Assembly: GCA_001779315.1 (NCBI GenBank)
Contig: MFJU01000006.1
Span: 2,612-66,611, forward strand
DNA: 64,000 nt
Direction: 5' to 3'
Source: Candidatus Gottesmanbacteria bacterium RIFCSPLOWO2_01_FULL_42_22
GTDB lineage: Bacteria; Patescibacteriota; Microgenomatia; 2-02-FULL-39-11
A program made the position numbers and the translations under genes. Positions 52,191-55,717 of this stretch are shown one piece after another. Within the stretch, counting starts at the first letter, position 1, and every line of letters starts with the position of its first letter. Under the pieces are notes generated by a model. It saw nothing but the letters and a program-made list of their open reading frames with translations, had not been told where the DNA came from and did not search any database.

Positions 52191-52245
52191 TTGACAATAG
52201 GCTATATAGCGTCTTACCATAATCGAGAACACTATAGCTGGGGTT
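52191..52245 (+). promoter_or_regulatory. Candidate promoter plus two NrdR-box-like palindromes upstream of nrdR-nrdJ
   Basis: TTGACA (52191-52196); palindromes GGCTATATAGC (52200-52210) and CACTATAGCTG (52230-52240) about 3 helical turns apart, resembling the A/T-centred 16-bp NrdR boxes that occur as tandem pairs. Confidence 0.3.
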
Positions 52246-52332
52246 AGAGACAATTACGAGCGGCCTGTCAAAATTCTATTTATTATAGAATTTTTTTTCG
52301 GCTAAAAAAACATTTAAAATCAGACAAAACTT

Positions 52333-52779
52333 ATGAAATGCCCATTTTGCAATAACAATGATACGGAAGTAGTCGAAACCCGGGATAATGAAGATATGCA
52401 GATAATCAGGCGCCGTCGTGAATGCCCTAAATGTGCTAAGAGATTTACCACATATGAAAGAATTGAACGGGTACCTTTAATTGTAATGAAGAAAGACGGC
52501 CGAAAAGAACAATTTGACAGGGATAAACTTAAAAACGGCATTTTAAAATCATGTGAAAAAACAGTAGTTGGCATTTCGGAAATTGATTCAATAGCTGAAG
52601 AAGTTGAAAAAGAATTACGGAATCAGGATGGAGTTGAAATCGACAGTAAAAAAATAGGACAGCTGGTAGCCCAAAAATTAAAAAAAATTGATAAGATAGC
52701 CTATATCAGATTTGCCTCGGTTTTCCGCAGATTCGTCGATGTTGAGGATTTCGAAAAAGAGTTGCAGAAACTGTTATAA
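52333..52779 (+). CDS. nrdR: Transcriptional repressor NrdR
   Basis: MKCPFCNNNDTEVVETR...CPKC zinc ribbon and ATP-cone; 148 aa. Confidence 0.85.
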   Translation: MKCPFCNNNDTEVVETRDNEDMQIIRRRRECPKCAKRFTTYERIERVPLIVMKKDGRKEQFDRDKLKNGILKSCEKTVVGISEIDSIAEEVEKELRNQDGVEIDSKKIGQLVAQKLKKIDKIAYIRFASVFRRFVDVEDFEKELQKLL

Positions 52780-52818
52780 AAATTTAGCCCCGAAGCTATC
52801 GGGGGATGAAAGGGTGCT

Positions 52819-55173
52819 TTGAACATGAAATTAACCGGCATTCGCGAACAGGTTTTTCTGGATAGATATTCTCTCAAAGATGAGAAAGGAAAGCCGGTCG
52901 AAAAAACACCCGAGGCTATGTGGAAAAGAGTGGCGGCAGGTGTAGCCGCGGTTGAAAAAAAGGCAGACAGAAAGTATTGGGAGAAAAAATTCAGCGAAGC
53001 CATGAATGACTTTAAACTGGTACCGGGAGGCCGCATTTTATCAGGAGCAGGCACCGGCTACAAGGTCACTTTTTACAACTGTTTTGTCATACCTTCGCCA
53101 AAAGATTCCCGTGACGGTATTTTGGATACATTGAAACAAATGGTGGAGATAATGGCACGGGGCGGCGGAGTCGGCATCAATCTCTCTTCTCTTAGGCCCA
53201 GGGGAGCCCGTGTCAGAAAAGTCAACGGATTTTCTTCCGGTCCCTGTAATTGGGCGGAACTGTTTTCGGTGGCTACCAAAGACATTATCCAGCAGGGCGG
53301 CACCCGCAGGGGAGCTTTAATGCTCATGTTGTGGGACTGGCATCCTGATATCGAGGAATTCATAACCGTCAAACGGGATCTTTCACGAATCAACGGAGCT
53401 AATCTGTCTGTTTGCGTTTCCGATAAATTTATGGAAGCGGTTAAAAAAGACGCTGACTGGGATCTGGTTTTTCCCGATATCGCAGACCGTGAATACGATA
53501 CGAAATGGGACGGCTATCTGGATAATTGGCTAAAGTTAGGTAAAAAAGTCAAAGTCCATAAAACCGTCAAGGCCAGAAAAATCTGGGACCTGATTTCTGA
53601 AGCAGCCTGGGCTTCGGCTGAACCGGGATTGGTTTTCATGGAACGCTATAACAAGTGGAACAACAACTGGTATTTCAACAACATAAATTGTGTAAATCCA
53701 TGCGGAGAGGAAGGATTACCGGCCTGGGGGGTCTGCAATCTGACATCGATCAATCTGTCGGCTTTAGTGCGGGACGGCAAGATCGATTATCAGGAATTAG
53801 CCGAAATTGCCCAGGTGGGCGTTAGATTCCAGGATGACATTATCGATGCGGATTCCTACGTTTTTCCCCAAATTGAAGAAACGCAAAAAAACGGTGAAAG
53901 GCGGATCGGATTGGGTACGATGGGGTTGGGTGATGCTCTCATCAAGATGAAAATCCGCTACGGATCCCCTCTGTCGATCAGGGTCATCGATAAGATTTAT
54001 TCGACCATCAGAAATGCTGCCTACGAAGCATCAACTGAGATAGCTAAAGAAAAAGGTGCTTTTCCCAAGTTTGAGGCCAAAAAATATTTAAAAGGCTATT
54101 TTATCAAACAATTGCCTGAAGCCATTAAGGCTAAGATTAAAAAATGGGGCATCCGTAACTCTGTTTTGTTACAGCAAGCCCCAACAGGCTCAACTTCCCT
54201 TCTGGCCGGTGTCACCTCAGGGATAGAACCCGTTTACGAGTTTTCCTTCATCAGGCGTGACCGCTTGGGTGAGCACCGCCTGTTTCACCCCCTTTTTGAT
54301 CAATGGAAAAAGGAACATCCCAATGATCCCATCCCTGATTATTTCGTCTCGGCCAATGATCTGATTCCGGACGATCACGTCAAGGTGCAGGCAGCCATCC
54401 AAAAATACGTTGATGCTTCCATTTCCAAAACGGTCAATGCACCCAATAGCCACACAGTTGAAGATGTCCGGAAATTGTACCGGATGGCTTATGAATTAGG
54501 CTGCAAGGGCATAACTTACATGAGGGATGGCAGCCGCCCCGGAGTGTTGGAAAGAGTTACGGATAAAAAAGCGGAAACCTCTGTCACTGCCCCCGACAGC
54601 AATTCTATAATCGGGAACGGCAAACATACGCCGGAAATTACCCCCAGGCCGATGGTGGTCAAAGGAGCTACCTACCAGATTGATACACCGGTCGGGGCTG
54701 CTTTTGTGACCATTAATACCGATATGGCTAATGAACCATTGGAGATATTTATCAATGTCGGTAAAGCCGGTTCAGATGTGACGGCTATGGCTGAAGCTGT
54801 CGGCCGCTTGGCTTCGCTCACATTAAGAATACAGTCAAGTGTACCTGCCTCGGAAAGAGCCAAACAAATATTTAACCAGCTGATCGGTATCGGGGGTTCG
54901 AAATCATTGGGATTTGGGGATAAAAGGGTCAGATCTTTGCCGGATGCGGTGGCCAAAATTCTGGCCATGCATTTTGATTATAAAATTAAAAACGGCAACG
55001 GCCTAACTCATAAAGAAGTAATTGCAGAACAGCAGCCTTTGGCGGTATTAACACAGCAAGCTTTGCCTGTCGAAAAATCAGAATTTGATTTATGTCCTTC
55101 CTGCGGAGAAGCTGCTCTGGCCTATGAAGAAGGCTGTAAAAAATGCTACAGCTGTGGCTATTCCGAATGTTGA
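52819..55173 (+). CDS. nrdJ: Ribonucleotide reductase, class II (adenosylcobalamin-dependent), with C-terminal Zn ribbon
   Basis: Active-site [22 protein letters not shown] (NPCGE is class II; class I has NLCxE); C-terminus [22 protein letters not shown]; 784 aa; flanked by nrdR and a cobalamin adenosyltransferase. Confidence 0.75.
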   Translation: [784 protein letters not shown]

Positions 55174-55177
55174 TAAC

Positions 55178-55717
55178 ATGCCTTCAAAAGTCAAAGTCTA
55201 CACCAGAACAGGTGATGCCGGTAAAACATCTCTATACGGCGGAAAAAGAGTCCCTAAAAGCTATTTGAGAGTGGAGGTATACGGAACTATCGATGAACTT
55301 AATTCCGTCATCGGCATTTTATTGTCGGATATGGGCAAAGAAGATAATCTGGCTAATTTTTTTAAGGAAGTCCAATCGGATCTGTTTTCTATAGGAGCCA
55401 ATTTAGCCGGAGATAAAACCGATTTAAATTTATTAACCGGTAGAACTGCCGAAATGGAGAAATTAATTGACGTGATGGATAAAGAGTTGCCTGAACTTAA
55501 AAATTTTATTCTGCCCGGAGGGACACATTTGGCCTCTTTGGCTCATCTGGCCCGTTCCGTCTGCCGCCGGGCTGAAAGAAAAGTCGTTTCATTAACTAAA
55601 ACGGACAGCCGCCTGTTTGCCTACCTGAACAGATTGTCCGATCTTCTTTTTATAACTGCACGCTATTTAAATTGGAAAAATGGTCTGAAAGATACGCTTT
55701 GGCTTAAAAAAAAGTAA
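55178..55717 (+). CDS. PduO-type ATP:cob(I)alamin adenosyltransferase
   Basis: MPSKVKVYTRTGDAGKTSLYGGKRVPKSYLRVEVYGTIDELNS is the PduO/MMAB N-terminal signature. Start set at ATG 55178; the track ORF start at 55085 overlaps nrdJ. Confidence 0.75.
   Translation: MPSKVKVYTRTGDAGKTSLYGGKRVPKSYLRVEVYGTIDELNSVIGILLSDMGKEDNLANFFKEVQSDLFSIGANLAGDKTDLNLLTGRTAEMEKLIDVMDKELPELKNFILPGGTHLASLAHLARSVCRRAERKVVSLTKTDSRLFAYLNRLSDLLFITARYLNWKNGLKDTLWLKKK

Follow-up and report, generated by a model that had tools for sequence, protein, structure and literature searches.

The 64,000-nucleotide (nt) stretch of DNA analysed here, referred to as the window, comes from contig MFJU01000006.1 of Candidatus Gottesmanbacteria (Microgenomates, Candidate Phyla Radiation (CPR)), and all coordinates are window positions. 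Positions 52333-55717 are occupied by three open reading frames (ORFs) on the same strand. They encode the repressor NrdR, a ribonucleotide reductase (RNR) of the adenosylcobalamin (AdoCbl)-dependent type, NrdJ, and a PduO-type adenosyltransferase. A promoter with a putative NrdR operator lies ahead of nrdR, and a cobalamin riboswitch follows pduO. Gene families were assigned using Pfam domains and the curated cut-offs of NCBIfam, and solved structures were searched for by sequence in the PDB. For comparison we used 80 related Microgenomates loci; the operator counts use 78, 77 or 65 of them. The nearest of the 80 is GW2011_GWA2_43_14, and its reductase is 92% identical to that of the window. 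The features of the locus are:

52191-52196, + strand: -35 hexamer TTGACA, found by promoter scan; in an alignment of 65 relatives, most have TTGAC at the same distance from box 2
52197-52212, no strand assigned: putative NrdR box 1, ATAGGCTATATAGCGT, in the register of the clade, with a linker of 16 base pairs (bp)
52199-52214, no strand assigned: putative NrdR box 1 in an alternative register, AGGCTATATAGCGTCT, with a 14-bp linker
52215-52220, + strand: -10 hexamer TACCAT, found by promoter scan, inside the linker between the boxes
52229-52244, no strand assigned: putative NrdR box 2, ACACTATAGCTGGGGT, at the inferred transcription start
52270-52298, + strand: terminator-like hairpin with a 10-bp stem (AAAATTCTAT/ATAGAATTTT), a 5-nt loop and then a U-run, from the minimum-free-energy fold
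52333-52779, + strand: nrdR, repressor of 148 amino acids with a Zn-ribbon and an ATP-cone (PF22811, 8e-20; PF03477, 2e-19; TIGR00244)
52825-55173, + strand: nrdJ, class II AdoCbl-dependent RNR with a C-terminal cysteine-rich domain (PF02867, 5e-127; PF00317; TSCPD; TIGR02504)
55178-55717, + strand: pduO, PduO-type ATP:cob(I)alamin adenosyltransferase of 179 amino acids (PF01923, 4.9e-56; TIGR00636)
55721-55795, + strand: cobalamin riboswitch aptamer (AdoCbl-II, RF01689, clan CL00101), 45.5 bits with a gathering score of 36.5, E = 7e-9
55844-55873, + strand: expression platform of the riboswitch, an intrinsic terminator with an 8-bp stem and T7, from the terminator scan and the minimum-free-energy fold

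All three proteins pass the curated cut-offs of their families. NrdR scored 186.8 bits with TIGR00244, above the equivalog cut-off of 124.65, and its four Zn cysteines (C3, C6, C31, and C34) are present. The residues of NrdR that contact DNA are D15, R17, and an RRRR motif at 26-29 (PMC9110341), and R17 and R26-R29 are retained in the window protein. PduO scored 185 bits with TIGR00636 (cut-off 108.45). The stop codon of nrdJ is the TGA at 55171-55173, and the ATG of pduO at 55178 is 4 nt past it. In the related loci, nrdR is immediately ahead of nrdJ in 78 of 80, and 69 of the 80 have pduO downstream of nrdJ in the same orientation, with a gap of at most 271 nt in 64 of those. Since about 64 of the 80 loci keep the order nrdR-nrdJ-pduO, the three genes are likely to be a functional unit. 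A preliminary description, made from the sequence alone, had proposed an operon of nrdR, a class II nrdJ, and a PduO-type adenosyltransferase that is directly downstream of nrdJ and coupled to it, with a riboswitch adjacent. The family cut-offs, the 4-nt gap with its conservation in relatives, and the RF01689 score agree with each part of this proposal.

The start of the aptamer is 4 nt past the stop codon of pduO, and this adjacency is conserved in most relatives. An Rfam scan of 16 relatives gave matches to the cobalamin clan just after pduO in 7: all five of those scanned at E <= 0.1, and two of the 11 scanned at the gathering score. Five of these seven matches were on RF01689. Using nhmmer, similarity to the aptamer was found within 260 nt past the pduO stop, mostly within about 100 nt, in 46 of 69 relatives. 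The aptamer tracks pduO even at loci where pduO is split from nrdJ.

It might be that pduO and the riboswitch-controlled genes are transcribed separately, and that the short gaps come from the compaction of a genome of about 1 Mb and not from co-regulation. CPR genomes are tightly packed, about 10 loci have more than 200 nt between nrdJ and pduO, and 5 have additional genes there. Moreover, a weak promoter-like match was found in the 140 nt ahead of the riboswitch in 9 of 47 loci, at inconsistent positions, compared with 5% of control segments. In the window, however, nrdJ and pduO are 4 nt apart with no terminator between them, and no promoter-like site was found before pduO or the aptamer, while promoters of this clade are otherwise readily visible: all 45 loci tested in the same scan had one ahead of nrdR. 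The genes inserted between nrdJ and pduO in relatives are also on the same strand. Separate transcription is thus unlikely, and we favor a predicted common transcript. Whether pduO has an operator of its own was examined at loci where it is split from nrdJ (L022, L023, L029, L030, L045, L047, L058, L063, L068, and L072). No pair of NrdR boxes above 8.9 bits was found before pduO there, and thus these loci give no independent evidence that pduO belongs to the NrdR regulon.

The promoter scan upstream of nrdR found TTGACA and TACCAT separated by 18 nt, with 10 of 12 matches. NrdR boxes were scored using a symmetrised 16-bp matrix made from ten validated Escherichia coli and Streptomyces coelicolor boxes only (PMC13584703, Table 1). 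Box 2 scored 13.58 bits and ranked first among all 16-mers of the window; the validated boxes span 11.4-17.9 bits. In random sequence, 0.2 sites scoring at least this high are expected per 64 kb, and about 0.0008 in a stretch as long as the 260 nt ahead of nrdR; the occurrence of box 2 within 100 nt of nrdR is thus far from chance. Box 1 scored 0.14 bits in the register with the 16-bp linker and 4.51 bits in the register with the 14-bp linker. As a pair the two boxes scored 18.09, the top pair in the window, and the maximum across 40 Markov-random 64-kb sequences was 15.55. The next pair in the window, at 53643 inside nrdJ, scored 11.9 bits, which is within random expectation, and it was rejected as a second NrdR site.

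Published NrdR boxes are 16-bp partial palindromes with C4, A6, A8, T9, T11, and G13, in which the AT content between C4 and G13 is 63% or more, and they are separated by linkers of 15-16 bp, with 14-17 bp tolerated (PMC13584703). The linker in the window is 16 or 14 bp depending on the register, and both are inside the tolerated range. For box 1 the matrix favors 52199-52214, while the clade alignment points to 52197-52212 as the ancestral register, and thus both are reported. Its right half, T9 to T16 (TATAGCGT), fits the T-T-A-G-y-G-T that is conserved in the clade. Box 1 appears to be a weak, partial NrdR box of which only the promoter-proximal half is conserved. The -35 hexamer, box 1, the -10 hexamer, and box 2 follow each other in an order that overlaps the RNA polymerase site, in a register fixed across the clade, and we infer that transcription starts at about 52227, on box 2. 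A putative tandem NrdR operator on the promoter is supported. The preliminary description had also seen a tandem operator here, in two short A/T-centred palindromes (GGCTATATAGC at 52200-52210 and CACTATAGCTG at 52230-52240, offset by 30 bp) that were said to overlap the TTGACA. The tandem arrangement stands, as the pair is the best in the window, but the units are 16-mers and not the short palindromes, box 1 is weak, and it abuts the -35 hexamer instead of overlapping it. The expectation that an NrdR box would score above background was borne out with our own matrix, in which box 2 is at rank 1 and the pair is above 40 of 40 random sequences.

The operator is conserved in the relatives. The best box pair upstream of nrdR had a median of 17.6 bits in 78 loci, compared with 2.5 bits in 1288 control segments, and 65% of the loci were above the 99th percentile of the controls (14.0). 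A linker of 16 bp was found in 48 of the 78 loci, while the distribution of linkers in control segments is flat. Furthermore, 58 of 77 loci have the best 16-mer of their whole length (about 14 kb) in the 260 nt ahead of nrdR, for which the chance expectation is about 2%. When 65 loci were anchored on box 2, the alignment read TTGAC, then box 1 with a variable left half and the right half T-T-A-G-y-G-T, then c-t-TAnnAT, and then rCACyAyAkaTAGyGT. The logo of box 2 in the clade is the published NrdR consensus, with A6, T11, and G13 in 65 of 65 loci and C4 in 62. In the right half of box 1, T11, A12, G13, and G15 are each found in 60-62 of 65 loci. The -10 sequence TAnnAT is at -14 to -9 before box 2 (T in 59, A in 60, A in 51, and T in 55 of the 65). 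In the sub-clade of the window, the distal half of box 1 is without C4 and A6.

These palindromes might be mere promoter-spacer and start-site sequence, conserved as parts of a strong promoter and not as NrdR sites. Each box overlaps elements of the core promoter, the score of box 1 is close to background, and a lone score like that of box 2 can turn up in random sequence. However, conservation falls precisely on the columns specific to NrdR (C4, A6, T11, and G13 in 62-65 of 65 loci), and the second TAGyGT half-site is 16 bp away in 48 of 78 loci. A matrix from unrelated organisms also selects the same spot as the best of the locus in 58 of 77 cases, and the site precedes nrdR and an RNR gene, which is the known regulon. 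A promoter without NrdR sites is thus a very improbable explanation, and we consider the two boxes as a putative NrdR operator.

Several observations weigh against control by NrdR at this promoter, or against NrdR as its sole control. A lone score matching box 2 occurs in 19% of random 64-kb sequences, and therefore the significance of the site rests on its position, pairing, and conservation. Box 2 has C4, A6, A8, T11, and G13 but G9 instead of T, which is five of the six published positions, and five of the eight bases at its positions 5-12 are A or T (62.5%), which is at the published minimum of 63% (PMC13584703). Box 1 has four of the six positions in the 16-bp-linker register, where C4 and A6 are missing, and five of the six in the 14-bp-linker register, where position 11 is G. 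C4 and A6 were critical or important in the E. coli and S. coelicolor assays (PMC13584703). NrdR itself differs at position 15 (codon 52375-52377), a specificity residue that contacts bases, which is Glu in 79 of 79 sequences of the clade, in the motif V-[VIL]-E-T-R, and Asp in the studied proteins of S. coelicolor and E. coli. Finally, the leader of nrdR contains a terminator-like hairpin, and therefore NrdR may not be the only control. Glu15, the loss of C4 and A6 from box 1, and the G9 and AT content of box 2 do not speak against control by NrdR, but with them the strength of binding cannot be assumed.

The leader hairpin may be an attenuator layered on the control by NrdR. In single-sequence scans of the closest relatives, a hairpin with a T-run between box 2 and the nrdR ATG was also found in L001, L004, and L006-L013. 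The stem is different in L004 and L006-L013, where it is CACGC-loop-GCGTG (TTTTTTATG). The hairpin was absent in L002, L003, L005, and L016-L020. The overall fold of the nrdR leader was not significantly stable (z = -1.33), and in a covariation test of the hairpin RNAalifold gave 0 pairs because MAFFT had misaligned the two hairpin types. No known RNA family besides the riboswitch was found at E <= 1 in 51400-56400. Upstream of the -35 hexamer, at 52128-52185 (+ strand), there are a conserved TTCCCGCA, GAGGCT/AAGGCT, and a TGATATA motif. In L001, L002, L003, L005, and L010 the last of these reads as a perfect extended -10 (TGATATAAT) and stands some 12-14 nt ahead of TTGAC. These conserved elements may be a second upstream promoter or the site of another regulator.

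The reductase has the Pfam domains Ribonuc_red_lgN, Ribonuc_red_lgC, and TSCPD. Its ORF begins at TTG 52819, and ATG 52825 is the likelier start because a ribosome-binding site, AAAGGGTG, is 8 nt ahead of it. TTG 52819 is probably not the start, as AAAGGGTG is merely about 1-3 nt away. The NPCGE...C motif is present in the reductase. Active-site chemistry of this kind is common to RNR classes I and II, and the motif alone is not diagnostic of class II. The preliminary description had read NPCGE as a class II active site; its class is borne out, by evidence other than that motif. The reductase scored 571 bits with the class II model TIGR02504 (NrdJ_Z, cut-off 400) and 623 bits with PRK08665. 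Its top solved relative in the PDB search was the NrdJ of Thermotoga maritima (1xje, 249 bits), while human R1 reached 191 bits. The C-terminal extension of about 210 amino acids (residues ~575-784) includes the TSCPD match, and the tail, CPSC...GCKKC..SC...EC, has six Cys. A six-Cys C-terminal cysteine-rich domain has been reported in 70% of NrdJ and is absent from class I (PMC5704485). Among the ORFs of the 64-kb window, which was the extent of the search, there were no candidates for NrdB/NrdF or NrdD/NrdG. Because of the scores with TIGR02504 and PRK08665, the T. maritima match, the six-Cys domain, and the absence of these subunits from the window, the predicted reductase is class II. That it is instead a class I-like alpha subunit (NrdA/NrdE type) with an unrelated pduO next to it is hardly credible, for although the class I model TIGR02506 was also passed (361 bits, cut-off 341), class I large subunits reach 191 bits in the PDB search, and both classes have the NPCGE...C motif, the class II models are ahead by about 210-260 bits, the top structure and the cysteine-rich domain are those of NrdJ, no NrdB/NrdF-like ORF is found anywhere in the window, and the linkage of the reductase to pduO, the cobalamin riboswitch, and DUF4430 is conserved.

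No ATP-cone was found in NrdJ by the domain scan, and therefore feedback by deoxyadenosine triphosphate (dATP) would act mainly at transcription. In the 45-nt spacer between nrdR and nrdJ, there is a GC-rich hairpin, CCCCGAAGCTATCGGGG, at 52788-52804, which may be an element for mRNA processing or stability. It was not seen in the nrdR-nrdJ spacers of the 17 closest relatives inspected.

We consider it likely, with a probability of about 85%, that nrdR-nrdJ-pduO is an autoregulated operon in which a sigma-70-type promoter is interleaved with a tandem NrdR operator and which supplies NrdJ and PduO. In this arrangement box 1 would fill the spacer between -35 and -10, the 16-bp linker would contain the -10 hexamer, and box 2 would cover the predicted start site. 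If the protein behaves like its characterised S. coelicolor and E. coli counterparts, NrdR would be a tetramer when the outer site of its ATP-cone holds dATP and the inner site holds ATP. The two Zn-ribbon pairs of the tetramer would grip both boxes, about three helical turns apart, and RNA polymerase would be shut out. With ATP alone, NrdR would assemble into oligomers unable to bind DNA, and transcription of the operon would proceed (for the mechanism of NrdR, see PMC9110341, PMC12051234, PMC13584703). The predicted output is the repressor, the AdoCbl-dependent NrdJ, and PduO, which would adenosylate imported cobalamin to the AdoCbl that NrdJ requires. Because nrdR is the first gene, as in nrdRJ of S. 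coelicolor, the loop would be autoregulatory.

The riboswitch is 4 nt after pduO and without a promoter of its own. This arrangement, which most relatives share, is the one less ordinary feature of the locus. In the simplest reading, the nrdR promoter probably drives transcription of the riboswitch too, and binding of vitamin B12 makes the riboswitch terminate the transcript. The terminator at 55844-55873 is thus probably also a B12-dependent 3' end of the nrdR-nrdJ-pduO transcript. More tentatively, and at somewhat less than even odds in our judgment, the promoterless riboswitch might be a B12-dependent conditional terminator inside a single unit of nrdR, nrdJ, pduO, the riboswitch, and candidate uptake genes. 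At low B12, RNA polymerase would continue past the terminator into the genes for an 877-amino-acid ORF, a DUF4430 protein, and a DUF6580 protein. Import would then need both NrdR off the operator (a demand for deoxyribonucleoside triphosphates) and scarce B12. The features downstream of the terminator are:

55874-55948, + strand: ORF of 24 codons that begins right after the T-run of the terminator and overlaps the start of the 877-amino-acid ORF by 8 nt
55941-58574, + strand: acidic ORF of 877 amino acids with internal repeats 'PLIxSLxGLLE', with no Pfam or NCBIfam match
58601-59071, + strand: DUF4430 (transcobalamin-like) protein with an N-terminal membrane anchor, a candidate gene for B12 capture
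59047-59619, + strand: DUF6580 membrane protein similar to the S component of energy-coupling factor (ECF) transporters, a candidate gene for B12 uptake

The 877-amino-acid ORF has 21% identity to a sequence in L001. No counterpart was detectable in L002, L003, L005, and L008, where DUF4430 directly follows pduO. NCBIfam gave no matches for the 877-amino-acid ORF, the DUF4430 protein, the DUF6580 protein, and an ORF of 152 amino acids. A PDB sequence search of the DUF6580 protein for a link to CbrT or BtuM gave no match at E <= 10.

The locus resembles nrdRJ of S. coelicolor, in which nrdR is also first and is co-transcribed with a class II nrdJ (PMC9110341, PMC13584703). There, two 16-bp boxes 15-16 bp apart cover the promoter and start, the genes are autoregulated, and NrdR likewise has a Zn-ribbon and an ATP-cone. 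Here, in contrast, pduO is appended, box 1 is cut to its promoter-proximal half, and NrdR has Glu15 in place of Asp15. S. coelicolor also has nrdAB, whereas no class I back-up was seen within the window. The T. maritima nrdJ promoter is a further case of a class II RNR under NrdR boxes, with a 14-bp linker like that of the better-scoring box 1 register (PMC13584703, Table 4 footnote), and its NrdJ is the closest solved structure to that of the window. It has three boxes, whereas the clade here has two, mostly with a 16-bp linker.

The second similar system is the nrdJ-cbrS-cbrT-pduO cluster of Lactobacillus delbrueckii. This B12 auxotroph clusters an AdoCbl-dependent RNR, PduO, and uptake genes including an ECF-type S component (Rodionov 2009, as cited in PMC5997447). 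The order here is instead nrdR-nrdJ-pduO, the riboswitch, and then the candidate uptake genes DUF4430 and DUF6580, and nrdR and its operator belong to the cluster. The candidate S component here matches no solved structure by sequence, CbrT included. Among the papers searched, there was no relevant work on nrdJ, B12, or DUF4430 in CPR/Patescibacteria. The locus combines the designs of S. coelicolor nrdRJ and the L. delbrueckii cluster in a CPR genome and is not a new system.

The window also contains dnaA/dnaN, type IV secretion genes, clpB, the mevalonate pathway, and cell-wall genes. The dnaA-dnaN genes (6148-8826), with rnpA and yidC nearby on the opposite strand, are likely to mark the region of the replication origin; the nrd operon is about 45 kb away from it. 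Genes similar to those of type IV secretion are dispersed at 10460-14376, 33644-35051, and 60101-62449, and they include a TraG/VirB4-like ATPase, a PrgI-family protein, four tandem small genes similar to type IV secretion pilins, and a VirD4/TrwB-like coupling ATPase. In most relatives, this last ATPase and the 152-amino-acid ORF preceding it keep their synteny with the nrd/B12 cluster. A ClpB-like ATPase of 1344 amino acids (14537-18571, + strand) has about 330 residues without a Pfam match between its second AAA module (to 781) and D2-small (from 1113), and this stretch could be an intein or another insertion. There is also a complete mevalonate-pathway cluster (36575-43116) with HMG-CoA reductase, HMG-CoA synthase, thiolase, two GHMP kinases, and a decarboxylase.

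The nrdR-nrdJ-pduO locus is a real but ordinary operon of a tiny uncultured genome, and it does not overturn current understanding. It indicates that the NrdR/NrdR-box system, which has been studied in few cultured bacteria, operates with recognisable logic in the CPR. The clade provides about 78 natural variants of the operator, with only a half-site left of one box and with Glu in place of the base-reading Asp15, and these variants bear on the current effort to define functional NrdR sites. If the conditional-terminator arrangement is true, a regulon of the dATP/ATP-sensing NrdR would reach vitamin uptake in minimal genomes. The preliminary description had taken the genome to lack cobalamin biosynthesis, as a likelihood; no B12 synthesis genes were found among the ORFs of the 64-kb window, to which the search was confined. 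DNA-precursor synthesis in these episymbiont-like organisms is indicated to depend on scavenged B12, with the coenzyme-forming step, and probably uptake too, wired to the reductase.

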